A stretch of DNA of 64,000 bases from an uncultured Pseudomonadales bacterium (GCA_964511175.1 CAZEEI010000003.1:13716-77715); one strand, 5' to 3'. Shown: positions 9,301-24,758, numbered from the stretch's first letter. Numbers and translations are program-made. Notes: generated by a model from the letters alone, not told the origin.

Positions 9301-10533
9301 ATGGATATCTATAACACCTTAACACAATCGGTTGAAACCATTAGTAATCTACCAAACAAGAACAAATTTGGTGTTTATACTTGTGGTCCCACCGTTTACG
9401 ACTACGCCCACTTAGGTCATATGCGCAAGTACACTATGGATGACATTTTGCTGCGCACGCTGCGACTAGCCGGTTTTCCGGTTAAGCACGTTATGAACAT
9501 TACTGACGTCGGCCACCTGGTTTCTGATGCCGATACCGGCGAAGATAAAATGGAGAAAGGCGCCCGCCGGACGGGTAAAACCGTTTGGGAAGTGGCCAAG
9601 TTTTTTGAGGACGACTTCTGGCGTAAGTTTGATCTGATGGGTCTGATTCGCCCGGACATTGCGCCCCGCGCTACCGACCATATCCCGGAGCAGATCGAGT
9701 TAGTCCAAGCTTTGGAGAAAAATGGCTTCACCTACGTTATACCTGGCGATGGTGTGTATTTTGATACCAGTAAAGACCCACACTACGGTGAACTGGCCCA
9801 TCTTAAACTCAGTCAACAACAGGAGGGGGCGAGGATTGGTGTAGTTGAAGGTAAGCGCAATGCCAGCGATTTTGCCTTATGGAAGTTTTCACCTCAAGAT
9901 CAACAGCGACAAATGGAGTGGGAATCGCCTTGGGGGATTGGTTTCCCGGGTTGGCATATCGAATGTTCCGCTATGAGTATGAAATATTTGGGTTCGCAGT
10001 TCGCCCTACATACTGGTGGTATTGACCATATTCCCGTTCATCACCCTAACGAAATTGCTCAAGCCGAAAACGCCACCGGTAAAAGACCCTTTGTGCGTTA
10101 CTGGGTACACCACAACTTTTTGCGGATCGATGGACAAAAAATGAGTAAGTCTCTGCAGAACTTCTACACTTTGGAAGACATTGTGGCCAAAGGATTTTCA
10201 CCGATGGCTCTCAAATTGCTTTTCCTGCAGGCGCATTACCGTGACGAGCTGAACTTTACCTGGGACAGTTTGGCGGCGGCGCAAAAAGGTTACGAGCGGC
10301 TACAACGGCAGATCCAGAAATTACTGGCGGCGGCGGGTTACCAAAATCTCGAAGAAGTGCCAGATTTGGTGGGAGAACCATCGCCGGAACTGGCGCGCTT
10401 TATCGAGTTAATGGAAAATGACCTGAAGACGCCGCAGGCACTGGCGATCATGTGGGGAACGCTTAAGGGTGCCAGTTCAGCTGAGTTGCCGGATTTGAAG
10501 CGGATGTTGGGGTATTTTGGGTTAGAGGTATAG
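9301..10533 (+). CDS. cysS: Cysteinyl-tRNA synthetase (class I); short form of 410 aa
   Basis: HIGH-type motif (HLGHMR), KMSKS, and CysRS zinc-binding cysteines. Confidence 0.85.
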   Translation: MDIYNTLTQSVETISNLPNKNKFGVYTCGPTVYDYAHLGHMRKYTMDDILLRTLRLAGFPVKHVMNITDVGHLVSDADTGEDKMEKGARRTGKTVWEVAKFFEDDFWRKFDLMGLIRPDIAPRATDHIPEQIELVQALEKNGFTYVIPGDGVYFDTSKDPHYGELAHLKLSQQQEGARIGVVEGKRNASDFALWKFSPQDQQRQMEWESPWGIGFPGWHIECSAMSMKYLGSQFALHTGGIDHIPVHHPNEIAQAENATGKRPFVRYWVHHNFLRIDGQKMSKSLQNFYTLEDIVAKGFSPMALKLLFLQAHYRDELNFTWDSLAAAQKGYERLQRQIQKLLAAAGYQNLEEVPDLVGEPSPELARFIELMENDLKTPQALAIMWGTLKGASSAELPDLKRMLGYFGLEV

Positions 10534-10564
10534 TATTTTTGACCTTAACCTATGATATCTTGTG

Positions 10565-10578
10565 AATATCTAGATATT
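10565..10578 (+). promoter_or_regulatory. 14-bp palindrome AATATCTAGATATT in the hsdM upstream region; candidate operator
   Basis: Perfect core palindrome ATATCTAGATAT about 55 nt upstream of the hsdM start. The downstream HsdM carries an N-terminal HTH domain. Confidence 0.4.
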
Positions 10579-10633
10579 TACAAATCATATTTTTCTGCTA
10601 CAGTGAGCCCATGAGCAAACGAGCAGAAACAAT

Positions 10634-12340
10634 ATGAACAATTCCAACCAGCCCCAATCTCTCCTGTTAAGTATCGGTCAAGTAGCCAAAATCTTTGGTA
10701 TTCATCAAGATACCCTGAGGAATTGGGAAAAAAGGGGAATATTAACACCACTAAGGGTTGGGGCACGTAGAGATCGTCGTTACAAACAGGCAGACATTGA
10801 AAAGATTGTCGACAAAGACCTAGGCAGCTTGTTAGTCGAGATCAGCGAGCAAAAAATAACGCTCACGCAACTTAAACAATTTTTATGGAAAAGCGCCGAC
10901 ATTCTTAGGGGGAAAATCGACAGCAGTGATTATAAAAAGTACATCTTTGGGCTTTTATTTTACAAGCGAATCAGTGATACCTGGGACGAAGAATATCAGA
11001 TAACTCTGGATGAATATCATGATGAGGCGCTAGCCTTAGCTGACTATAATCACCGATTCCAAGTACCCAGGGATTGTCAGTGGTCAGTGATTACTGAGAC
11101 TTCAAAAAATATTGGGCAAAAACTAAACGACATTTTCGATAAGATTACTAATGTAAACAGCCCAAAACTAGATAAGATTTTTGCTGACCTTGACTTTGCC
11201 AACAAAGACCGCTTTCCAAATGAAACACTTCAACGACTAATTAACCACTTCTCTCAGTATAACTTTGGTAATACCTACATTAACTCTGATCTTCTAGGCG
11301 ATGCCTACGAGTACCTTATTGGCCAATTTGCAGCCGATGCAGGTAAGAAAGGCGGAGAATTCTATACCCCCCGCGAAGTTGAGCGCGTCATTATTAATAT
11401 TGTTAAGCCACATCAAAAGGACCACATCTATGACCCCACCGTAGGTTCAGGTGGCTTTCTTCTTGAGGCGTATAACTATCTTAAAAATAAGTCTGGAGAA
11501 CAGATTGCCCGCAGCCTATATCTCTATGGGCAAGAAATCAACCTCAGCACTTTTGCCATTGCCAAGATTAACATGTTCCTGCATGGACTGGATAGCGCCG
11601 ACATTAGGCGTGGTGATACACTGGCTAACCCGCAATTCCTTAACGATGTAGGCAATCTGCAAACCTTTGATATTGTTGTGGCTAATCCCCCATACTCCAT
11701 TAAGGATTGGGAGTTCGAACTATTCAAAAGTGACAAATATGGTCGAACGGAGGGTTTTGACCAGCCACCTAAAAAGAATGCTGATTACGCTTTTGTTCTC
11801 CATATTCTCAAGTCGATGAACGCCAATGGTCGGGCCGGGGTGGTATTACCGCACGGCGTTTTGTTTCGCGGCGGGAGTGAAGGGCGTATCCGTGAGCAAA
11901 TTATTAAAAGTGACCTTTTAGAGGCCATCGTGGCCCTGCCAGCTAAGCTATTCTATGGTACTGGTATTCCAGCCGCCATCCTGATCTTTAACAGAAACAA
12001 GCCGGAACATAAAAAGGGCAAGGTTCTCATTATTGATGGCGAACACGATTATTTGGAAGGTAAAAATCAAAATACGCTCAGGAAACAGGATATAGACAAA
12101 ATTGTTAAGGCTTATGACCAGTATGGGGATGCTGAAAAGTACGCCAAAGTAGTAGGTGTTAAAGAGATTGAAGAAAACGATTTCAACCTCAATGTCAGAC
12201 GCTACATTGACTCGACGGATGAGCAGGAAATGATTGATGTCAAGCAGGTTTGGAGTGAAATTAAACAGTTGGAAATAGAAAGAGACGAGATTGATAAAAA
12301 AGTGACAGGTTTTATTAAGGAGCTAGGCTATGACGATTAA
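10634..12340 (+). CDS. hsdM: Type I restriction-modification methyltransferase subunit HsdM, with an N-terminal MerR/excisionase-like HTH domain
   Basis: HTH at aa 10-60 (IGQVAKIFGIHQDTLRNWEKRG), then an HsdM_N-like helical domain and an N6-adenine methyltransferase with the NPPY motif (VVANPPYS). Confidence 0.9.
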   Translation: MNNSNQPQSLLLSIGQVAKIFGIHQDTLRNWEKRGILTPLRVGARRDRRYKQADIEKIVDKDLGSLLVEISEQKITLTQLKQFLWKSADILRGKIDSSDYKKYIFGLLFYKRISDTWDEEYQITLDEYHDEALALADYNHRFQVPRDCQWSVITETSKNIGQKLNDIFDKITNVNSPKLDKIFADLDFANKDRFPNETLQRLINHFSQYNFGNTYINSDLLGDAYEYLIGQFAADAGKKGGEFYTPREVERVIINIVKPHQKDHIYDPTVGSGGFLLEAYNYLKNKSGEQIARSLYLYGQEINLSTFAIAKINMFLHGLDSADIRRGDTLANPQFLNDVGNLQTFDIVVANPPYSIKDWEFELFKSDKYGRTEGFDQPPKKNADYAFVLHILKSMNANGRAGVVLPHGVLFRGGSEGRIREQIIKSDLLEAIVALPAKLFYGTGIPAAILIFNRNKPEHKKGKVLIIDGEHDYLEGKNQNTLRKQDIDKIVKAYDQYGDAEKYAKVVGVKEIEENDFNLNVRRYIDSTDEQEMIDVKQVWSEIKQLEIERDEIDKKVTGFIKELGYDD

Positions 12341-13154
12341 ACTAGTCATTTTTGAAGAAATCAAGCGCACCAATGAGTACCAATCAGAATATTGGTCGGC
12401 ACGGCAATTAGCCAGGGCTTTGGAGTATAAAGATTACCGCAATTTTGAAACGGTGCTTGGAAAAGCCAAAGAAGCGTGTAAAAACAGTGGTCAATCGGTA
12501 GAAGATCATTTCGGTGATGTCACCGACATGATCGAAGTCGGTAAAACTGCTTCACGAGAAATTAGTGATACCTATCTGTCCCGGTACGCTTGTTATTTGG
12601 TTGTACAAAATGCTGATCCGGCTAAAGAAATAGTCGCTTTGGGGCAAACCTATTTTGCGATCCAAACCAGAAAGCAAGAAGTTCAGGAGCAGCTTGTCGA
12701 AGATCAGAAACGATTGTTTTTGCGGGATGAAGTTACCACGCACAATAAACATCTGGCAGAAACGGCCTCTAAGGCTGGAGTGAAAAACTATGCTGTCTTT
12801 ACTAACTATGGCTATATGGGGTTATACGGTGGTTTGAAAGTGCAGGATCTCCACAAACAGAAGAGGCTTAAGAAGAGCCAGAAGATTTTAGATCACATGG
12901 GTAGTGAAGAGCTGGCAGCCAATTTATTCCGTGCTACTCAAACCGATGCCAAGATTAAGCGGGAGCAGATCCAAGGTGAGGCCAGAGCTAATCAAGCCCA
13001 TTTTGTTGTGGGCAGAAAGGTTAGGCAGACGATTGGAGAATTAGGCGGAACCATGCCGGAGAAGTTGCCAACTCCCGACGGGGTGGGACGGGCAAAGACT
13101 AGAGCTAATAAGTTGGCGGCGCAGAAGAGAAAAGAGTTGGAAAAGTCGACATGA
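12330..13154 (+). CDS. dinD: DinD/RhuM-family protein (DNA-damage-inducible protein D-like), embedded in the R-M operon
   Basis: Strong resemblance to DinD (..YWSARQLA..L.Y.D.RNF..VL.KA..AC..SG.....HF......YLSRYACYLVVQNADP..IALGQTYFAIQTR). Confidence 0.75.
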   Translation: MTIKLVIFEEIKRTNEYQSEYWSARQLARALEYKDYRNFETVLGKAKEACKNSGQSVEDHFGDVTDMIEVGKTASREISDTYLSRYACYLVVQNADPAKEIVALGQTYFAIQTRKQEVQEQLVEDQKRLFLRDEVTTHNKHLAETASKAGVKNYAVFTNYGYMGLYGGLKVQDLHKQKRLKKSQKILDHMGSEELAANLFRATQTDAKIKREQIQGEARANQAHFVVGRKVRQTIGELGGTMPEKLPTPDGVGRAKTRANKLAAQKRKELEKST

Positions 13155-14341
13155 AAAACCAAATGACAAGCAACTGGCAGGCAAAGCAAATTAAGGACTT
13201 GCTCGATTACGAGCGTCCTGATAAATATATTGTTGAAAACACATACTATATTGACTCAGGAACTCCAGTGCTGACCGCTAATAAATCCTTTATTTTGGGT
13301 TATACAGATGAAGAAACAGGTATCTACGATAATGTACCCGCAATAATTTTTGATGATTTTACAACAGACAGTAAATTTGTTGATTTTCCTTTCAAAGTTA
13401 AGTCATCCGCAATTAAAATTCTAAAAGAAAAAAGCAAAGAGGTGGATATAAGGTTTGTATTTGAGAGAATGAAATCCATCAATTTCCCTACAGGAAATCA
13501 TAAGCGATATTATATCTCTCAATACCAAAACATGAAGATTGCAGTACCCTCTTTGCCTATTCAGAAAAAAATATCCAACATTCTTTCTACTATTGATGAA
13601 GCTATTCAAAAAACGGATCAAATAATCAAAAAAACTAAAAAACTCAAGCAAGGGCTAATGAACGAATTACTAACGAAGGGTATTGGGCATAAAAAGTTTA
13701 AAAAGACAAAAATCGGTGAGATTCCTAAAAAGTGGAAAGTAACTTCTATTCTGGATTCTGATATACAAATCATTGACGGCGATAGAGGCCTTAGCTATCC
13801 CAACAAGAACGATTTTTCTAATGAAGGATATTGCTTATTCTTAAGCGCTAGAAATTTTATTGATGATCATTTTGATTTTAGAGAATACGTCTTTATTTCT
13901 AAAGAAAAAGATAATCAACTGAGAAAAGGCAAACTGAAAAAAGGGGATGTCGTTCTCACTACAAGAGGTACTGTTGGAAGTGTGGCAATTTATAATGATT
14001 CAGTTCCATTTGAGGACATTAGAATTAACTCAGGAATGTTAATTTTTCGTGCAGAGGGTGAAATCGACAATAATTTCCTTTATTTTTTACTAAAAAGTCC
14101 GTACTTTAAGGAAAGATATAATCAGTTGGGGTCTGGTTCAGCGCAACCTCAACTTCCGATTAGGAGTTTAAGAAATCTATTAATACCAATACCTACTATT
14201 GACGAACAGCGCGAAATAGCGAGCAAATTATCTTTTTTGGATTTAAAACATGATAAAGAAATTGCACAATTATTGAACTTAAAAATGCTTAAGAGTGGCT
14301 TGATGTACGATATTTTTAACCAGAAAGTACAAATTAACTAA
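13151..14341 (+). CDS. hsdS: Type I restriction-modification specificity subunit HsdS
   Basis: Two target-recognition domains separated by conserved coiled-coil spacers. Very AT-rich. Confidence 0.85.
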   Translation: MKNQMTSNWQAKQIKDLLDYERPDKYIVENTYYIDSGTPVLTANKSFILGYTDEETGIYDNVPAIIFDDFTTDSKFVDFPFKVKSSAIKILKEKSKEVDIRFVFERMKSINFPTGNHKRYYISQYQNMKIAVPSLPIQKKISNILSTIDEAIQKTDQIIKKTKKLKQGLMNELLTKGIGHKKFKKTKIGEIPKKWKVTSILDSDIQIIDGDRGLSYPNKNDFSNEGYCLFLSARNFIDDHFDFREYVFISKEKDNQLRKGKLKKGDVVLTTRGTVGSVAIYNDSVPFEDIRINSGMLIFRAEGEIDNNFLYFLLKSPYFKERYNQLGSGSAQPQLPIRSLRNLLIPIPTIDEQREIASKLSFLDLKHDKEIAQLLNLKMLKSGLMYDIFNQKVQIN

Positions 14342-14342
14342 T

Positions 14343-15215
14343 ATGAGTACATCAAGTAGATTTGACCAATTTTTAAGCAATATCAAACTAACATCTGATC
14401 AACTTGCCGATGCAAAGACTAAGTACGATGGAGTCTGTAAAAAAATACATGATCATTACTATTCGAGTGACTATGATGGTTCTACAAAACTACTTATTGG
14501 TTCTTATGGAAAGAGAACAAATATCCGTCCAGCACGAGATGTAGATGTGATTTTCATGCTTCCAGCCTCTGAATACAAACAATCAACAAATGATTATAAT
14601 TACCAGTCTTCTCTACTGCAAAAGATAAAACGCATTTTAGAAGAAAAATACCCCGATACTGACATTTGTGGCGATGGACCAGTTGTTGTCGTTAATTTTA
14701 GTAACAATCATTTTATTGAAGTAGTTCCTGCCATTGAGTTAACAAATGACAAATTTTATATTCCTTCTACAAGTAGTGGTGGCTACTGGAAGCTTGACGA
14801 CCCTCGAGCTTTATATAGGTTCATCAACGACTCAGACAATAACACCAACGGTAACACACGAAATCTTATCCGTATGATAAAAAAATGGCAGGACTCTTGT
14901 AATGTTCCAGTTAAGTCACTTGTTATAGAAATCAGAGCAGTATTATTTTTAATTGATTATGAATACAAAGATAAAGGTTCTACATACTATGACTGGATGA
15001 TTAGAGATTATTTCAAACAACTCATCGAGAAAACCAACAACACATATATTTTACCTGGATTAACCGAGAAAATTTATTACGGTGATGCTTGGAAATCAAA
15101 AGCAAAGACAGCTTATGCTCGTGCAATAAAAGCCTGTCAGTATGAGTCAGATAAAGAAGAAACATTAGCGGCCGAAGAATGGAAGAAAATATTCGGTGAA
15201 GACTATTGGTATTAA
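14343..15215 (+). CDS. cGAS/DncV-like (SMODS-type) Pol-beta superfamily nucleotidyltransferase
   Basis: hGSYGKRTNIRPARDVDVIFML gives the GS...DxD catalytic pattern, and a third acidic residue lies in the strand HFIEVVPA. The gene sits 1 nt after hsdS and is followed by an overlapping 2-TM partner. Confidence 0.65.
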   Translation: MSTSSRFDQFLSNIKLTSDQLADAKTKYDGVCKKIHDHYYSSDYDGSTKLLIGSYGKRTNIRPARDVDVIFMLPASEYKQSTNDYNYQSSLLQKIKRILEEKYPDTDICGDGPVVVVNFSNNHFIEVVPAIELTNDKFYIPSTSSGGYWKLDDPRALYRFINDSDNNTNGNTRNLIRMIKKWQDSCNVPVKSLVIEIRAVLFLIDYEYKDKGSTYYDWMIRDYFKQLIEKTNNTYILPGLTEKIYYGDAWKSKAKTAYARAIKACQYESDKEETLAAEEWKKIFGEDYWY

Positions 15216-15790
15216 ATATGGACAAAACAAATTTAGAAGTTATCAGGGAGTCTTTCGGCAAAGTTTGCTACTCTCACAAAACTCACGAAAAGGACTGCGA
15301 AATACAATCTAGGTACGCAACAATGGTGAAGTGGGTAAATATCGCTCTAATTGCCACCACGACAGGATCATTACTTAGCACATTGCTTGCTGATCAAAAC
15401 CTGATTGTTGTCAGTGCTATTTTTTCCTCCATCACGCTAGGTTTCAGCATTTTTCAAATCAGCTTTAATCCAGAAAAAAAGGCAGCGAGGTACAAACAGG
15501 TAGCTAACTCCCTGTGGCTTATTAGAGAAAAATACGTAAGCCTAATGGCCGATATTATTAACTCAAGTGTTAAGGAGAAAGAAATTATTAAACGCAGAGA
15601 CGAATTGATGAATGAACTTGATTTTCTTTATAAAGCTGCACCAAGCACCAGTAGCTCTGCATACGAAAAGGCTGGGGTTGCTCTACAGTTAAACGAGGAG
15701 CTTACATTTTCTGATAAAGAAATTAATCAATTCCTCCCAAATAGTTTGCATATTACGAGTCCAAAAAAGAATAAGCATTATGAAATTTAA
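15206..15790 (+). CDS. Two-transmembrane SLATT-like putative effector
   Basis: Two hydrophobic helices (WVNIALIATTTGSLLSTLL and LIVVSAIFSSITLGFSIFQISF) followed by a charged helical tail. Start and stop both overlap neighbouring genes, so it is translationally coupled to the nucleotidyltransferase and to hsdR. Confidence 0.55.
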   Translation: MVLNMDKTNLEVIRESFGKVCYSHKTHEKDCEIQSRYATMVKWVNIALIATTTGSLLSTLLADQNLIVVSAIFSSITLGFSIFQISFNPEKKAARYKQVANSLWLIREKYVSLMADIINSSVKEKEIIKRRDELMNELDFLYKAAPSTSSSAYEKAGVALQLNEELTFSDKEINQFLPNSLHITSPKKNKHYEI

Positions 15791-18719
15791 CGAACAGCAC
15801 ACCGTCGAAAATCATATCATCAAGTTTCTATCCATAACTCTTGGCTATGAGTACATCAAGCCAGAGGAGTTTGCCCTTTTGCGGGAGCTTGAAAACCAGT
15901 ATTTGGTTACTTCACACCTGGCAGAAGCCATTAAACAGATCAACAACCTAACCGATGATACCGAAGTGCAAAGTGTTATCAGAGAAATAAAGAAGATTGA
16001 CTCCAATGAGGGCTTCTTAGACCTGATGAGAAACGGGGTCAATCTCAAGGATCCTTCGACGGGCAAGACGAAGGATTACGCGGTTGTTGACGCCGACAAT
16101 CCCGAAAATAATCGTTTTGTCGTTACTAATCAATTTTATTTTGAAGGTAATCTGGAAAACATCAGAACCGATGTGATGGTTTTCTTGAATGGTATCCCTG
16201 TAGTCGATATCGAGGCCAAAAGCCCCACTGCCTCAACTAGTGTTAGTTACGAGAACGCCATTGGCCAGATCAAACGCTATGAGAGAGCGGCCATGAAACT
16301 CTTTTGGCCCAATATGTTTAATATAGCTACTGATGGATTAAAGACTGTTTATGGTACTACTTACGCCCCAGATCAGTATTTTCTGCAATGGCGTGATGAT
16401 GAGCTTGAAAAGAAACTAGGCAGACAATTAGAGATGACTTTGGCGGCACTATTGGACAAAGAGAGATTATTGGACATTATCAAGAACTTTATTCTTTTTG
16501 AACAAACCAAAGATGGCCGCATTAAAAAGATGGCTCGTTATCAGCAGTTAAGGGCCACCAATAAGATTCTGGAGCGAGTACGGGGTGGCGAAAAAAGACG
16601 TGGCTTAGTTTGGCATACTCAGGGTTCCGGCAAGTCACTCACGATGTTTTTCACTGCGTGGAAGCTAAGGTTTTCTAAAGAATTGAAGAATCCTAAGGTT
16701 TTTATATTAGTAGATCGAATTGACCTTGATGACCAGATTTATGACACGTTCGTCAATGCAGGCGGCACAAACGTTATACGAGTGACTTCTAGGCGTGATC
16801 TTCAGGAAAAAATCACCAATGATGAGCGAGGTATCTTTATCTCGACCATCGAAAAATTCAACGAACTGCCGCTTGATTTAGACAATCCTAATGAGAACAT
16901 TATTGTCCTTTCTGATGAAGCGCACCGGACTAACGAGGGTGTGGCGGCGATTAAATTGCGGGATTCTATGGGAAAGGCATTTTTCTTTGGCTTTACCGGT
17001 ACACCGATTGACAAAAAAACACTCAATACTCATCGTAATTTTGGTCAAGAGGGTGAGAGGTATTTGGATTATTACTCAATTCAGCAGGCTATTGATGATG
17101 GGGCAACCCTGCCGGTCACCTATGAAGCAAGGTTATCTAAATTTTTTATTAACGAGGATCGAATTGATGAGCAATTCGACGCAGTAACACAGGATCTCAG
17201 TGCAGAACAAAAACAGCTAATTATGAGGCGCTTTGGTAAGAAAGAGGCCTTGATCAAACTCGATCAACGGATGAGGATCATTGCTCAGGATATTATTGAT
17301 CACTATAGGCTTTATATTGAACCCAATGGTTTCAAAGCGCAAATTGTCTGCTATGACCGGGAAGAGACGGCTAAATATAAACAATTGCTGGATGAGCTGG
17401 TGTCCCCCGAATGTACGGCGGTGGTGTATTCATCTGGAGATCCAAATACAGATAGTGAGCGCTTGCGCGAGTACAACACGACTAAATCTCAGCGTGAACA
17501 GATAATTGCTTCTTTTAAGGATCCAAATAGTTCTCTCAAATTGCTTCTGGTCTGTGACATGCTTTTAACCGGTTTTGATGCGCCAATTGAGCAGGCAATG
17601 TACCTGGACAAGCCTCTAAGAGACCATAATTTACTACAAGCAATTGCTCGGACAAACCGTACTTATCCTCATAAGGGTTGTGGCAAAATTATTGACTACT
17701 ACGGCATTACGCGCAATCTCTATGATGCTCTTAATTTTGACGAGAGCATCATTGATTCAGCTTTGATTGATCTTGATTATTTGAAGCAGGAGTTTCTCGA
17801 AATACTGGGTGAAATTAAAGATATTTTTGTTGGCATCAATCAGGAAGATCCGTCCATCAACAACCTCAGAGTTTGTCTGAAAATTTTTATTGATAATGAG
17901 GATAAGCAGAGATTCTTTACCGACAAGTATTCCAGGATGAAGCTATTATTTGAGGTATTATCTCCCGATCCTTTCTTGGGTGAATATATTCGCATTTTTG
18001 AGTGGATTACTAGTGTTTATATTGCTTTTGTCAATGAGTTTCGATCGGAAAACTTGGCAATGAACGCTTTTAGGAATGGTGATATTCCCACTTTTGGTGA
18101 ATATGGGGAAAAAGTCAAAAAACTTATTCAAGACAATCTGGATTATGAGGGCATTACCAAAAACTTTCGAGAATTAAATATTAATGATATTTACACTCTC
18201 GAGCGTCTGGACAAAATGGATGATGAAGAAAAAGCACTAGCACTCGAAAAAATGCTCAGCCAGGAAATTACAGCCAATCTTGACACAGACCCCACTTTTC
18301 AGAAGTTTAGTGAAAGACTTAGAGCCATTCGTGAGGAGTTTGAGCATCATCAGATTGATCTTTCGGAACGAATTAAACGCTATTACGAGTTAATGAATGA
18401 CATTAAAAATAAAAATGACTTGGCTAAAGAACTGGGACTAAATCTGAGAGAATACGGTTTATATCTAATTTGTCAGGAATATATACCAGAAACTTCTCAA
18501 TCAGTGTTAACCGATTTATCTAGAGATTTGTCAAGAAGAATAGAATCAATTCTCGACGTAGATTGGCAAACCTCCTCAAAACGTGAGGAATTTTTGAAAG
18601 GTATTAAACAGGCAATACAAGAGGTTATTTTAAGGGATTATCGGGGAAGAATTAAAGTAGGTGCTTTCCCCAAAATGCTCAATAGGTTGGTGGATATAAC
18701 TTTTAAAAAATTTACCTAG
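15780..18719 (+). CDS. hsdR: Type I restriction enzyme R subunit HsdR
   Basis: SF2 helicase motifs (TQGSGKSLTMFF, DEAHR), the ResIII/HsdR family and a long C-terminal domain. Confidence 0.92.
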   Translation: MKFNEQHTVENHIIKFLSITLGYEYIKPEEFALLRELENQYLVTSHLAEAIKQINNLTDDTEVQSVIREIKKIDSNEGFLDLMRNGVNLKDPSTGKTKDYAVVDADNPENNRFVVTNQFYFEGNLENIRTDVMVFLNGIPVVDIEAKSPTASTSVSYENAIGQIKRYERAAMKLFWPNMFNIATDGLKTVYGTTYAPDQYFLQWRDDELEKKLGRQLEMTLAALLDKERLLDIIKNFILFEQTKDGRIKKMARYQQLRATNKILERVRGGEKRRGLVWHTQGSGKSLTMFFTAWKLRFSKELKNPKVFILVDRIDLDDQIYDTFVNAGGTNVIRVTSRRDLQEKITNDERGIFISTIEKFNELPLDLDNPNENIIVLSDEAHRTNEGVAAIKLRDSMGKAFFFGFTGTPIDKKTLNTHRNFGQEGERYLDYYSIQQAIDDGATLPVTYEARLSKFFINEDRIDEQFDAVTQDLSAEQKQLIMRRFGKKEALIKLDQRMRIIAQDIIDHYRLYIEPNGFKAQIVCYDREETAKYKQLLDELVSPECTAVVYSSGDPNTDSERLREYNTTKSQREQIIASFKDPNSSLKLLLVCDMLLTGFDAPIEQAMYLDKPLRDHNLLQAIARTNRTYPHKGCGKIIDYYGITRNLYDALNFDESIIDSALIDLDYLKQEFLEILGEIKDIFVGINQEDPSINNLRVCLKIFIDNEDKQRFFTDKYSRMKLLFEVLSPDPFLGEYIRIFEWITSVYIAFVNEFRSENLAMNAFRNGDIPTFGEYGEKVKKLIQDNLDYEGITKNFRELNINDIYTLERLDKMDDEEKALALEKMLSQEITANLDTDPTFQKFSERLRAIREEFEHHQIDLSERIKRYYELMNDIKNKNDLAKELGLNLREYGLYLICQEYIPETSQSVLTDLSRDLSRRIESILDVDWQTSSKREEFLKGIKQAIQEVILRDYRGRIKVGAFPKMLNRLVDITFKKFT

Positions 18720-18867
18720 CCAACAAAAAAACGCCCGGGGCGGTTCTTTGCACTTGCCACTCCATTACTGGGGTGTCGTCTTGTCTGTTTAATGGTAGCA
18801 AAATTGGTTTTTCTGTCAAGGTGTTAACCGTGGACCTAAGAAAAAAAAGTTTCGTTTTAGGAAAAAA

Positions 18868-21801
18868 CTAAGGCCGATACTTGAGTTCTTCCACCAGGTA
18901 CCTACCGGTTTCCGACAACGGATTCTGAGCAACCTGCGCCGGACTGCCGGCCGCTACGACACGACCGCCATCATCGCCGCCGCCGGGACCCAAGTCAATC
19001 AGCCAATCGGCATTCTTGATCACGTCCAGATTATGTTCGATTAGTACTACCGAATTACCCTGGCGAATTAATTTATCCAGCACGTCCAGGAGTTTGCGAA
19101 CGTCTTCAAAATGGAGGCCGGTGGTTGGTTCGTCCAGCAGGTAGAGTGTATGGACAGTGGTGTTGGTAGTGAGTTCTTTGGCCAATTTGACGCGCTGGGC
19201 TTCACCGCCGGAAAGAGTGGGAGCCGGCTGACCAAGCTTAATGTAACCCAGGCCAACCTCGAGCAGAGTCTGTAGCTTCTGCTGCACTTTTTTATAGTGG
19301 GCAAAAAACTGGGCTGCTTCTTCAATAGTCATTGCTAAAACTTCGGCAATCGTCTTGTCGTGGTAGTGTACTTCCAGGGTTTCACGGTTGTAACGACTGC
19401 CGTGGCAAACGTCGCAATCCACGTAAATATCTGGCAAAAACTGCATTTCGATCTTAACCTGACCCTCACCCTGACAAGCTTCACAGCGACCGCCCTTGAC
19501 GTTGAAACTAAAGCGACCTGGTTTGTAGCCGCGCTCCTTGGCGTCATGAGTCTCGGCAAAAACTTCGCGGATGAGATCAAAAACTTTGGTGTAGGTTGCA
19601 GGGTTGGAGCGCGGCGTACGGCCGATCGGGCTCTGGTCAATTAGAGCTAGCCGCTTAATGTTTTCGTAGCCGTTAATTGCTGTCACCGGACCAGGTGTGG
19701 CGGTCGAAACGCGATCAAGAAGTAGGAGCAGGTTTTGGTAAAGAGTGTCGTAGAGCAGGGTTGATTTACCGGAGCCGGATAAGCCGGTGATGCAGGTGAG
19801 CTGGTGCAGCGGGATTTCGACCGTCAGATTTTGCAAATTATGGGCAGTAGCGCCGTGGATCATCAGTGATTTTCCCCGCTGGCTAAGCGGTTGAGTGCGC
19901 GGTGCCAACCAAATGTCTTGTCGCCGGCTCAGGTAGGCGCCGGTGAGGGATTTTTTGTTTTTAATGATATCGGCTGGTTCGCCTTGGGCAATAACGTGAC
20001 CGCCGTGAACACCGGCGCCGGGGCCAAAGTCAATCAGTTGGTCGCTGGTTAACATGACATCGCGGTCGTGTTCGACTACCACTACCGTGTTGCCCAAATC
20101 ACGCAAGTGTTTGAGCGTAGTAATTAGCCGATGGTTATCTTTTTGGTGCAAGCCGATGGTTGGTTCATCCAAAACATACAGGACGCCGGAAAGACCGGTG
20201 CCGATTTGCGAGGCCAGGCGAATACGCTGCGCTTCGCCGCCAGCTAAGGTATTGGCTTCCCGCGCGAGCGTCAGGTAGGACAACCCCACGGATACCAGGA
20301 AGTTAAGGCGGGTAATGATTTCTTTAGCAATCGGTTCCACCACCTGACGCTCGCGCGCGGTTAAATCCAAGTTTTGTTCCAGCAGATTACTGATCCAAGT
20401 TAAAGCTTCGTTGATGCTAAATTCGGTAACGTCCGCAATCGACAGATCTCCAATGGTGACTGCTAAACTTTCCGGTTTAAGCCGTCGGCCCTGACAATCG
20501 GGACAAGCGTTTTTTTGCATAAAACGTTCAATTTCCTGTCGAATATAGTCGGAACTGGACTCGCGGTAGCGCCGTTCTAAATTAGGAATGAATCCCTCAA
20601 AGTTTTCCCGGATCAGGGTTTCTTCACCAAAGCGGTTGGTGCCGCGGACGGTATAAACTGTATCGCTGCCGTACATTAACTCCTGCTGTAACTCGGCCGC
20701 CAGATCGCGCCAGGGTTTACGCCAATCTTCGCCATACTCTTCGACAATTGTACGTACAATGCGGGCAAACCAAGTATCGCTCTCCAGCATGCGGGCAAAG
20801 GGAATGATGGCTCCTTCCGACAGGGTGAGACTGGGTGCAATCAGTTTGTTTAACTCAATAGCCAGAATAGTCCCCAAGCCGCTGCAGCGGGCGCAGGCGC
20901 CGTGGGGCGTGTTAAATGAGAACATCCGCGGTTCAATTTCTGGTACCGGCAAGCCGGTGCTGGGGTAGACGCGTTTTTCCGTGAATTCGCGCCGCTCGAG
21001 TTTTTTAGGATGATCAGGAAAAGTCAGGCCGGCATCCAGGACGAAGGCCACATCCACCCAACCATCGGATAGGGCCAGGGCTTGTTCGATGTCACCGTTA
21101 AGGCGTGATCGGAGGGCGTGTTGCTCACTGGTGTCGGCGAGTTGTTGGGAAGAGATCACCACCCGGTCGACAATGGCAGCGATGGCGTGTTTATTATTTT
21201 TGAATAAAGTAATTTCGTCACGCAAATCATAGAGATCACCATCGATTAGCGCCTGGGAATAACCCTTCTGGCGTAGGTTGGCGAACAGCGATTGGAATTC
21301 GCCCTTGCGATCTTTAATGACTGGTGCCAGGACGAGGAAGCGGACGGGGGCTTCAATCGCGCGCCGGCCGACCTCAGCAAACAGTTCGTCCAGGATTTGA
21401 TCCAAGGAAAAAGGCATCACTTCTTCACCGGTCTGCGGGTCGTGCGGTCGGCCGGCGCGCGCAAACAGCAGCCGCAAATAATCGTAAACTTCCGTAATTG
21501 TGCCGACGGTAGAGCGCGGGTTATGGGAAGTAGTTTTTTGATCGATCGAAATAGCTGGTGACAGGCCGGTAATACTTTCAACTTTAGGCTTTTGCATCAC
21601 GCCTAAAAACTGGCGCGCGTAAGCGGAAAGCGATTCTACATAACGCCGCTGCCCTTCGGCGTATAACGTGTCAAAAGCAAAAGAAGATTTGCCCGAACCA
21701 GACAAGCCGGTGACTACTACCAGTTTATTCTTGGGAATATCCAAATCGATGTTCTGGAGGTTATGTTCTTGCGCCCCGCGCACACTAATTAAGTCGGCCA
21801 T
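18868..21801 (-). CDS. uvrA: Excinuclease ABC subunit A
   Basis: Two ABC ATPase modules (GLSGSGKSS and GLSGSGKST) plus zinc fingers. Full length, 977 aa. Confidence 0.95.
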
Positions 21802-21876: not shown

Positions 21877-22434
21877 TTAAGTAGACAAAGGTAAGCGAGT
21901 ATAACATTGTTCAAATAATGTTGGGTCGAATTGCGTAATTTGCCAATGGATTAACTTGTCGGCGCCATCACTTTCGATAGTAATAATATTTTTCTTGATG
22001 AAAAATTCCGAGGGATAATCTCCTAAATCGGTAGTGACGATACAGGAATTTGGGTAAAGCATAGCTCTACCCATCAAAGTTAGGTCTACCACAGAGGGGC
22101 TGTATCGCCTTTTTTTAAATTGCTGAGTAATAATTCTGGATATTACTAAAGCATTATGCAAAACCTGTTGGAATATATGTTGGTCATTAGGACAGTCTAA
22201 AAAAGGCTCATTGGATAAAAGAGACTCCTTTTTAAGGATGTAACTCAGCTCAAACGTATTGCGCAGGAATTCAAGCCTGACTAGAGGATCAACGATAAAG
22301 AATTGAGTAGGAAACAACTCAAGTAGTGCATGGTTGCAAATCTCGTTTTCACTAAAGTCGCTTAAAATGCCAGTATCAAGAAAAATCCAGCTGCTCAGCA
22401 ACCGCTTCTGCTTGTCTTTGTCGTAGAATATCAT
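21877..22434 (-). CDS. PIN-domain protein; putative type II toxin/ribonuclease
   Basis: N-terminal WIFLDTGIL is a PIN Asp-box. The gene is AT-rich and pairs with an overlapping small upstream ORF. Confidence 0.5.
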   Translation of the reverse strand: MIFYDKDKQKRLLSSWIFLDTGILSDFSENEICNHALLELFPTQFFIVDPLVRLEFLRNTFELSYILKKESLLSNEPFLDCPNDQHIFQQVLHNALVISRIITQQFKKRRYSPSVVDLTLMGRAMLYPNSCIVTTDLGDYPSEFFIKKNIITIESDGADKLIHWQITQFDPTLFEQCYTRLPLST

Positions 22435-22567
22435 CGTTTCTTTCCCTTAGTTTTTCAGTATCCTGCAAGAACCGTTTCATTTTCTGTAGGAGTAGGGTAT
22501 TAGTTCCAGGGTTTCTGACGGGTGGTTTGGTTTTAATTGTTCCGATATAAACTTGCGTTTGAGGCAT
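22376..22567 (-). CDS. Small protein upstream of and overlapping the PIN gene; putative antitoxin
   Basis: 63 aa and charged. Its stop overlaps the PIN gene 5' end, in the usual TA arrangement. Confidence 0.35.
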   Translation of the reverse strand: MPQTQVYIGTIKTKPPVRNPGTNTLLLQKMKRFLQDTEKLRERNDDILRQRQAEAVAEQLDFS

Positions 22568-24571: not shown

Positions 24572-24758
24572 TAATGTTGCGGGGCAAGGAATCGGACCTT
24601 GTCTGCGAGATTATGAGCCTCACGTGCAACCGTACACTACCCCGCGCGACAGGGACTTATTATAGCACAATGTTAAGGAATCCGGCGCCTACGGCCGCCA
24701 ACAATGGTGGTAATTGTTAGATTTAGGCCTAGTGTATCAAAATGACCAAAACCGATAG

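Follow-up and report, generated by a model that had tools for sequence, protein, structure and literature searches.

A CD-NTase and SLATT_4 pair, predicted to be a minimal type I CBASS, as cargo of a type I restriction-modification operon from a Woesebacteria-like bacterium

Immune modules lodged between hsdS and hsdR have been documented in several type I restriction-modification (R-M) operons. In the RRDM island of enteropathogenic Escherichia coli (EPEC) this position is taken by DarTG2, in the order rptR-hsdM-hsdS-darTG2-hsdR-M48 peptidase (PMC12255303); TgvAB is embedded at the same site in VPI-2 (a Vibrio pathogenicity island) of V. cholerae (PMC11411939), and PrrC and RloF are also documented there (PMC11411939, PMC12707154). 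In EcoprrI, prrC lies within the hsd locus and senses the inhibition of the enzyme (PMC12707154). Cargo of BREX, DISARM and type I R-M systems has been surveyed across RefSeq genomes under the term 'guilt-by-embedding' (Payne et al., bioRxiv 10.1101/2024.01.29.577857). On its own, a type I cyclic-oligonucleotide-based antiphage signalling system (CBASS) formed by EcCdnF04 and SLATT6 protects E. coli at least 10^4-fold (bioRxiv 10.1101/2023.05.21.541620). Here we describe a defence island found in a 64,000-nt stretch of contig CAZEEI010000003.1, which in its full length is referred to as the window. In this island a pair formed by a nucleotidyltransferase of the cGAS/DncV-like kind (CD-NTase) from the SMODS family and a two-transmembrane (2TM) protein of the SLATT_4 family is located between hsdS and hsdR of a type I R-M operon. 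The loci and contigs that were compared with the window are designated by L numbers.

This pair is probably an autonomous type I CBASS that travels as cargo in a mobile type I R-M operon, and the evidence favours this reading over that of a PrrC-like guard. A full-text literature search, in which the founding SMODS/SLATT paper was not covered, found no description of a CBASS or a SMODS-SLATT pair inside a type I R-M system. SMODS and SLATT were reportedly defined by Burroughs et al. in 2015 (NAR). In the text of Payne et al. 2024 (bioRxiv 10.1101/2024.01.29.577857) and the supplements examined, neither 'CBASS' nor 'DinD' is mentioned. A CBASS between hsdS and hsdR extends the documented pattern of embedding, and overturns nothing in the current understanding of these operons.

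The island comprises six open reading frames (ORFs), all on the + strand between positions 10634 and 18719, in the order hsdM, dinD, hsdS, cyclase (SMODS), SLATT_4 and hsdR. The insertion site between hsdS and hsdR, the orientation of the inserted genes and the equally tight coupling of the operon are shared with the DarTG2, TgvAB, EcoprrI-PrrC and Campylobacter Rlo operons. In the window, hsdM and dinD overlap by 11 nt, dinD and hsdS by 4 nt, and the SLATT gene and hsdR by 11 nt; a gap of 1 nt separates hsdS from the cyclase gene, and the latter either overlaps the SLATT gene by 10 nt or, with ATG 15218 as the SLATT start, is followed by a gap of 2 nt. A first-pass annotation, made from the sequence alone, had proposed these six ORFs and their junctions, all of which were exactly reproduced; the six gene identities that it assigned proved right by profile matches, and the genes on either side of the island, cysS (9301-10533, + strand) and a convergent uvrA (18868-21801, - strand), were correctly named. 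The extent that it gave, 10565-18719, was right as to the end and the genes; however, hsdM begins at 10634 and not at 10565. We place the horizontally acquired, single-operon island at about 10546 to 18730, with only 148 bp (18720-18867) lying between the stop codons of hsdR and uvrA.

The window differs from the DarTG2, TgvAB and PrrC operons in that its cargo is a predicted CBASS, in that a second slot is filled with DinD, and in that its host belongs to the candidate phyla radiation (CPR). With the EPEC RRDM island it shares a 5' helix-turn-helix (HTH) regulator and repeat operators, which are putative in the window, although RptR is a separate protein whereas the HTH of the window is fused to HsdM. 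Likewise, a peptidase gene follows hsdR both in the RRDM island and in three loci related to the window (L001, L002 and L004), whereas the window itself has no such gene.

The cyclase gene (14343..15215, + strand) encodes a protein of 290 aa that was identified with Pfam and PADLOC profiles, by its motifs and from an AlphaFold model. It matches Pfam SMODS (E 2e-31, 109.8 bits versus a cutoff of 26.5) and the PADLOC Cyclase profile (E 4e-97), and an alignment of 29 homologs, with identities down to 49%, shows no variation at residues G53-S54, D66, D68 and E126. Its profile aligns over the full length with CdnD from P. aeruginosa (6P8U, E 1.6e-21), with the GS and DxD motifs in register. The AlphaFold model has a predicted local distance difference test (pLDDT) score of 93.3, and the top 50 Protein Data Bank (PDB) matches found for it by Foldseek are all CD-NTases or cGAS, the best TM values being 0.78-0.81, led by CdnD 6P82. 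As modelled, the protein has a CD-NTase fold, with a Pol-beta-type core and a C-terminal helical lobe, and is closest to CdnD. The profile searches that the first-pass annotation had proposed for this ORF, read there as SMODS/CD-NTase, thus bear out its assignment. An imperfect 31-nt inverted repeat (71% complementary, with 38 nt between its arms) at 14278-14377 extends from the end of hsdS, across its stop codon, over the start of the cyclase gene, and could occlude the ribosome-binding site of the cyclase in the mRNA.

The adjacent gene (15206..15790, + strand) encodes the two-transmembrane SLATT_4 effector, for which the profile check also agreed with the earlier SLATT call. Its match to Pfam SLATT_4 (PF18186; E 8e-52, 175.7 bits versus a cutoff of 27) covers model positions 4-165 of 165, and it is further matched by NCBIfam NF033632 (130 bits versus a cutoff of 55) and by the PADLOC 2TM effector profile (E 2e-60). 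Hydropathy analysis revealed two adjacent hydrophobic helices at about residues 43-61 and 65-87, and the AlphaFold model (pLDDT 82.8) is all-helical, with helices at residues 2-57 and 63-82 followed by four more. The protein has 194 aa if translated from TTG 15206 and 190 aa from ATG 15218, and the latter start is favoured because the homologs are 181-198 aa in length. The island is present with 100% identity in SRR8925802. In an independent assembly with 100% identity over 4.9 kb (L178:2864-3448), this gene was called as only 81 aa; a truncated SLATT was rejected as an artefact of the gene caller, since the DNA is 100% identical to that of the window. The exact 190-aa protein is not in a collection of 5.8 billion proteins, where the best match is 85% identical. 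The 81-aa call and this absence show that the SLATT gene is under-called by automated annotation.

By their sequence features the two genes constitute a predicted minimal type I CBASS, in which the cyclase would synthesise the signal. As in EcCdnF04-SLATT6, there are two genes, a CD-NTase and then a 2TM effector of the SLATT superfamily, the enzyme has the CD-NTase fold with GS and DxD motifs, and Cap2, Cap3, HORMA and TRIP13 are absent; in profile scans the other four genes of the island were assigned to hsdM, dinD, hsdS and hsdR. In contrast with EcCdnF04-SLATT6, the effector of the window belongs to SLATT_4 and not to SLATT_6, the nearest solved cyclase is clade-D CdnD with an identity of only about 22%, and the pair lies inside the operon of another system.

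That operon has, according to its profile matches, the backbone of a complete type I R-M system, with predicted methylation and restriction activities. The methyltransferase subunit HsdM (10634..12340, + strand, 568 aa) carries a fused N-terminal HTH of the MerR/HTH_17 type (residues 11-60, at 10664-10813); it matches Pfam N6_Mtase (E 3e-108), HsdM_N (E 5e-24) and MerR_1 (E 2e-10), as well as TIGR00497 (280 bits versus a cutoff of 243), and its translation shows the NPPY and DPTVGSGGF motifs (catalytic, S-adenosylmethionine-binding). The specificity subunit HsdS (13151..14341, + strand, 396 aa), with two target-recognition domains, matches Pfam Methylase_S in two stretches (E 2e-22) and PADLOC Specificity_I over residues 28-396 (E 9e-60); hsdS is the most variable gene of the backbone, and its relatives align to the C-terminal half only, with 33-64% identity. 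The restriction and translocase subunit HsdR (15780..18719, + strand, 979 aa) matches TIGR00348 (549 bits versus a cutoff of 285) and Pfam HSDR_N, SWI2_SNF2, T1R_D3-like and T1RH-like_C, and shows the GSGKS and DEAH motifs of an SF2 translocase and the D..EAK motif of a PD-(D/E)xK nuclease. The slot between hsdM and hsdS is occupied by dinD (12330..13154, + strand, 274 aa), which encodes a homolog of the DNA-damage-inducible protein D with a Bro-N domain (NCBIfam NF008573, 371 bits versus a cutoff of 242, residues 7-266; PADLOC PDC-S13, E 2e-111). DinD is also present in this slot in at least five other loci (L096, L098, L146, L123 and L159), and is absent from L001, L002 and L004.

When the window HsdR was scanned against metagenome contigs, 80 loci were obtained with identities of 30-87%, and those with an HsdR at least 55% identical were taken as the close lineage. 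Here, 41 of the 43 loci that resolve both hsdS and hsdR, some of them near-duplicates, carry 0.6-2.5 kb between these genes and 2 are empty; in the distant R-M lineages (HsdR 30-38% identical) this slot is mostly empty (8/12). The cargo between hsdS and hsdR belongs to at least 33 unrelated protein clusters, with examples at L096:6166-6996, L116:4051-4671, L103:6202-8001, L146:7228-7995 and L122:528-1166. Those with an annotation include Shedu SduA, a DUF6602/NucC-like PD-(D/E)xK nuclease, DUF3644/PDC-S19, PDC-S32, DinD-like genes and an AAA_13/PDC-S06 (PrrC/RloC-like) ATPase. The SMODS/SLATT pair of the window type was in none of the 80 HsdR-relative loci. In a relative with a 77% identical HsdR (L112:2884-4424), the same slot carries an unrelated CD-NTase (PADLOC Cyclase PDLC00788, E 6e-87) together with Cap15, an effector with transmembrane helices and a cyclic-dinucleotide receptor domain; these two genes are predicted to be a second, unrelated type I CBASS. 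The slot between hsdM and hsdS is likewise often filled in the lineage. Clusters C0 and C3 have no Pfam or PADLOC match, with C5, C9, C11 and others lying outside that scan, and the unannotated cargo provides candidates for undescribed defence genes. Several of the unannotated clusters look like small membrane proteins.

The cargo of this lineage resembles that catalogued by Payne et al. in being co-oriented and mostly defence-related or of unknown function, and PDC-S13 (DinD), PDC-S06, PDC-S19 and PDC-S32 all appear in its slots. In contrast with that survey of RefSeq genomes, the present data concern a single CPR-borne lineage with a slot occupancy of about 95%, at least 33 clusters and 43 metagenomic loci. 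The pair of the window lies between hsd genes, is co-oriented with them and is variable among relatives, as expected of predicted defence cargo carried inside a type I R-M operon; the composite represents a single allele of a slot for defence cargo that is hypervariable in this mobile type I R-M lineage of the CPR.

The closest homologs of the cyclase (78-87% identical) were found in three CPR loci (L001, L002 and L004) with the order MerR-HsdM/HsdS/SMODS/SLATT_4/HsdR. Their R-M subunits are 71-81% identical to those of the window, each locus has a different chromosomal neighbourhood, and the peptidase gene after hsdR, mentioned above, is of the YgjP/M48-like type. Another close pair, with the cyclase 81% and the SLATT protein 72% identical (L005), is located in a different defence island that has no hsd genes, and the homologs with identities not above 62% form two-gene cassettes that stand free in mobile elements. 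Among 80 species-representative loci with a member of this family, the pair is nested in 2 (L014 and L092), lies next to a type I R-M system that does not enclose it in 3, and has no adjacent hsd genes in 75. In L092, identity to the window amounts to only about 30-33% for HsdM and HsdR and to 34% for the cyclase, yet the pair is in the hsdS|hsdR position; the hsdM|hsdS position is occupied there by Fic/DOC and two hypothetical genes, and a Bro-N gene is found downstream. The same nesting was observed in a plasmid of Arcobacter sp. AZ-2023 (CP146529.1; L179, 52724-67569), with the order hsdM-RhuM-hsdS, a 431-aa cyclase homolog annotated as hypothetical, SLATT, a DUF87 ATPase with an RNA-binding-domain protein, and hsdR. 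The ATPase and RNA-binding pair of this plasmid resembles a two-gene cluster that the RptR paper (PMC12255303) places between hsdS and hsdR. Locus L015, with the order hsdM-hsdS-[Mrr_cat+M78 peptidase]-cyclase-SLATT-hypothetical followed by the end of the contig, was not counted as nested since no hsdR is seen. Of the phage collections, INPHARED gave only two partial matches and IMG/VR only two distant ones; one of the latter (L177) has the pair after hsdMSR and not nested. The view of the first-pass annotation that the composite architecture is unusual is not supported by these results, given that the same nesting recurs in at least three other CPR genomes (L001, L002 and L004), in the distant R-M system of L092 and in the Arcobacter plasmid, that the hsdS|hsdR slot is nearly always filled, and that embedding at this site has been published.

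Nucleotide comparisons revealed how the island is put together. With the nearest backbones (L096 and L098), homology covers hsdM to dinD, stops at 13140, at the dinD/hsdS junction, and resumes at 15779, at the start of hsdR. With L001, L002 and L004, it stops at the hsdM stop (12340) and resumes at the 3' end of hsdS to continue through the cyclase, SLATT and hsdR, and with the free-standing cassette of L005 it is restricted to 14338-15794. Because these breakpoints coincide with gene boundaries, the island can be described as a mosaic that joins a backbone with a DinD module, an hsdS that varies and the CBASS cassette. Moreover, cassette and backbone do not rank the loci alike: the cassette most similar to that of the window is the one of L001 (87% and 85%), whose HsdM and HsdR are the least similar (75% and 71%). 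This discordance suggests that cassettes were exchanged, rather than that they co-evolved with the backbone.

The acquisition of the island as a whole is supported by its composition and by synteny. Its GC content is 0.392 versus 0.494 in the rest of the window, where none of 199 other 8.1-kb segments falls below 0.481 (sd 0.008), and its tetranucleotide distance to the window background is 0.39, about threefold the maximum of 0.129 found elsewhere. By gene, GC is 0.42 in hsdM, 0.45 in dinD, 0.327 in hsdS, 0.346 in the cyclase, 0.371 in SLATT and 0.40 in hsdR; both scans agree with the AT-richness that had been noticed at first sight, lowest in GC from hsdS through the 2TM gene. The nearest named matches of the window CysS belong to Candidatus Woesebacteria, and on this sequence evidence the host is placed as a Woesebacteria-like member of the Patescibacteria (CPR). 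Three relatives with a CysS 71-76% identical (L093, L094 and L095) keep the backbone dnaX-ybaB-recR-ORF-cysS...uvrA, with no hsd or SMODS genes in the gap between cysS and uvrA, which contains two small ORFs in L094 and L095 and about 7 kb of unrelated genes in L093. Since the three relatives carry unrelated or minimal content there, the gap is a variable slot and the 8.2-kb island an insertion. The horizontal acquisition proposed in the first-pass annotation is therefore upheld by the absence of the island from these relatives together with its deviant composition; at the cysS-uvrA junction, the six genes are not a conserved ancestral arrangement of ordinary composition, which is the possibility that it had set against its own proposal. 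That the acquisition was recent is consistent with a composition that has not ameliorated; on the other hand, the search for a close donor yielded none, as nucleotide identity to any relative reaches about 78% at best. The relatives of the R-M module are low in GC everywhere (0.28-0.45), so that they match the flanks in low-GC hosts and stand out in hosts with a higher GC, which speaks for transfer out of a low-GC CPR pool.

The cassette lies between the two copies of an exact 15-nt direct repeat, TATGAGTACATCAAG (14342-14356 and 15846-15860). Its interpretation as a target-site duplication was rejected, as the copies occur singly in other loci, at the cyclase start in L005 and within hsdR in L127; the pair of repeats is a juxtaposition that reflects coincidence or microhomology. 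In three CPR genomes uvrA lies about 0.1-9 kb from a SMODS-SLATT cassette (the window, L004:17157-18064 and L005:1-1473), with different immediate contexts, and the neighbourhood of uvrA may repeatedly serve this group as a hotspot for defence genes. Just past uvrA in the window, at 21877-22567 on the - strand, there are two overlapping ORFs of 185 and 63 aa, neither of them with a Pfam match and the larger with a GC of 0.378; they may represent another small acquired module, for example of the toxin-antitoxin type. The only tRNA of the window is a tRNA-Met at 24576, which is not adjacent to the island. The CysS of the window and of its closest relatives has 403-425 aa, and most other Patescibacteria have a CysS of about 470-485 aa with an extra C-terminal PF23493 domain.

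Upstream of hsdM, a putative promoter and operator region was delimited at 10546-10604 on the + strand. It begins with an operator-like element, TAACCTATGATATCTTGTGAA (10546..10568), a degenerate copy of the tandem CCTATGAA repeat that is conserved upstream of hsdM in the lineage. A 24-bp palindrome, TTGTGAATATCTAGATATTTACAA (10560-10583), overlaps a sigma-70-like promoter match at 10577-10604, with TTTACA at 10577, TACAGT ending at 10604 and a TG extension, which is a consensus match only and is found 30 nt before the ATG of hsdM. The HTH is fused to HsdM in 37 loci, and in 30 of these the motif CCTATGA is present within 160 nt upstream, mostly as a TAACCTATGAAAACCTATGAA tandem repeat with a 10-bp spacing that abuts a -35-like TTGAC(A); this upstream repeat was seen at L001, L002, L004, L096, L098, L103, L106, L107, L113, L119, L144, L155 and others. 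From its conservation, the repeat is a putative operator site. Because the lineage has both a fused HTH-HsdM and a conserved tandem-repeat operator at the promoter, the operon is probably autoregulated, and a single promoter controlled by the HTH would drive the co-transcription of the whole operon whatever its cargo. A parallel is the EPEC hsdM-hsdS-darTG2-hsdR island, where RptR acts as a separate repressor (PMC12255303).

Together, these data depict an R-M lineage with two cargo slots that hold different defence genes in different relatives. In the window, dinD occupies the one between hsdM and hsdS, and the predicted minimal type I CBASS the one between hsdS and hsdR. According to the proposed mechanism, the CD-NTase would sense infection and produce a cyclic or linear oligonucleotide signal, and the SLATT_4 membrane effector would answer this signal by permeabilising the membrane, leading to abortive infection; this role of SLATT_4 is suggested by its family context and by the precedent of SLATT_6. 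The pair most likely shares the transcription and the mobility of the R-M operon and not its biochemistry, in such a way that restriction would be the first line of defence and the CBASS a back-up against phages that escape it. The layered immunity put forward in the first-pass annotation is the most reasonable reading of the island, with co-transcription as a predicted feature. The autonomy of the cassette is argued from the pair of L005 outside an R-M system, from the free-standing homologs, from the low number of nested cases (2/80) and from the operons of CD-NTase and SLATT that work alone in E. coli.

Several observations weigh against an autonomous, functional CBASS carried by a mobile single operon. 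The third catalytic residue of the window cyclase, and of its family, is Glu (E126), which is Asp in CdnD and in the characterised CD-NTases. The enzyme also remains below the cutoffs of the NCBIfam equivalogs (CBASS_cyclase_b 121/200 bits, CBASS_cyclase_a 66/200, cGAS 21/150), and for this reason it is regarded as a member of the CD-NTase superfamily outside the named equivalogs. No solved relative of SLATT_4 was found by sequence or by fold, and the literature searched contains no experimental study of SLATT_4, the precedent there being SLATT_6. With regard to transcription, the number of matches in the promoter scan of the region equals the chance expectation, and the match upstream of hsdM was retained because of its position and its conserved neighbour and not because of the match count; no significant terminator was found after hsdR, where the A-run/GC hairpin/T-run at 18725-18750 has no advantage in folding over shuffled sequences (z 0.58). 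As for mobility, no integrase, tRNA or flanking repeat was found at the island borders. Finally, a functional link between the two systems would likewise predict that the cassette persists, as it does, in the exact slot across several CPR genomes whose R-M subunits are 71-81% identical.

This last point leads to a guard of the PrrC kind, which we consider unlikely, in which the pair would be held inactive by physical coupling to HsdMS/HsdR and would fire when an anti-restriction protein similar to Ocr, ArdA or Stp disables restriction. The pair has indeed the same position as prrC in EcoprrI (PMC12707154), but the same slot takes dozens of unrelated cargos. The nesting is kept across the window, L001, L002 and L004, and recurs in the distant R-M system of L092 and in Arcobacter; however, an 81%-identical cassette resides in the non-R-M island of L005, hsd genes are not adjacent to the pair in 75 of the 80 species-representative loci, and the rankings of cassette and backbone similarity are incongruent, as seen in L001. 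Type I CBASS is without a known dedicated sensor module, yet operons of CD-NTase and SLATT work alone in E. coli (bioRxiv 10.1101/2023.05.21.541620). If true, the guard reading would provide the first CBASS triggered by the loss of integrity of another immune system.

Mobility is a property of type I R-M modules, which can also be addictive. It is conceivable, with rather low probability, that the cassette, or even the island in its entirety, is decaying or silent and is retained as a passenger only by its linkage to a selfish R-M system that stabilises itself post-segregationally. Apart from that mobility and addictiveness, the 81-aa SLATT call made by one automated pipeline would fit such decay; nevertheless, this short call is a gene-caller artefact on 100% identical sequence, the six ORFs are full-length with intact catalytic or structural motifs, none of the catalytic residues varies among the 29 homologs, whose identity goes down to 49%, and translational coupling is kept at every junction. 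An inverse, Panoptes-like mode of signalling, in which a constitutive nucleotide would keep the 2TM effector closed until its depletion by phage sponges or nucleases opens the pore, is very improbable: inhibitory signalling between a nucleotide synthase and a 2TM effector has a precedent (PMC12657230) and the minimal pair lacks a sensor domain, but Panoptes uses a miniature CRISPR-Cas10-type enzyme and not a CD-NTase (PMC12657230, a paper in which hsd genes appear only as strain genotypes), the enzyme of the window is by its fold a CD-NTase closest to CdnD, and the characterised type I CBASS operons of CD-NTase and SLATT act conventionally (bioRxiv 10.1101/2023.05.21.541620).

Under the preferred reading, of an autonomous CBASS carried as cargo, the island would be a layered-defence operon, combining restriction, DinD and an abortive-infection CBASS, in Patescibacteria, a group of ultra-small organisms on whose phage defence few data exist. 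The main added value of this work is the cargo platform itself, with a conserved promoter and putative operator, two slots that are almost always filled, and many unannotated clusters. The lineage therefore offers a compact place in which to look for new defence genes through 'guilt-by-embedding', and it also represents a natural, isogenic-like set of constructs with which it can be asked if embedded systems synergise with, or depend on, their host R-M system.

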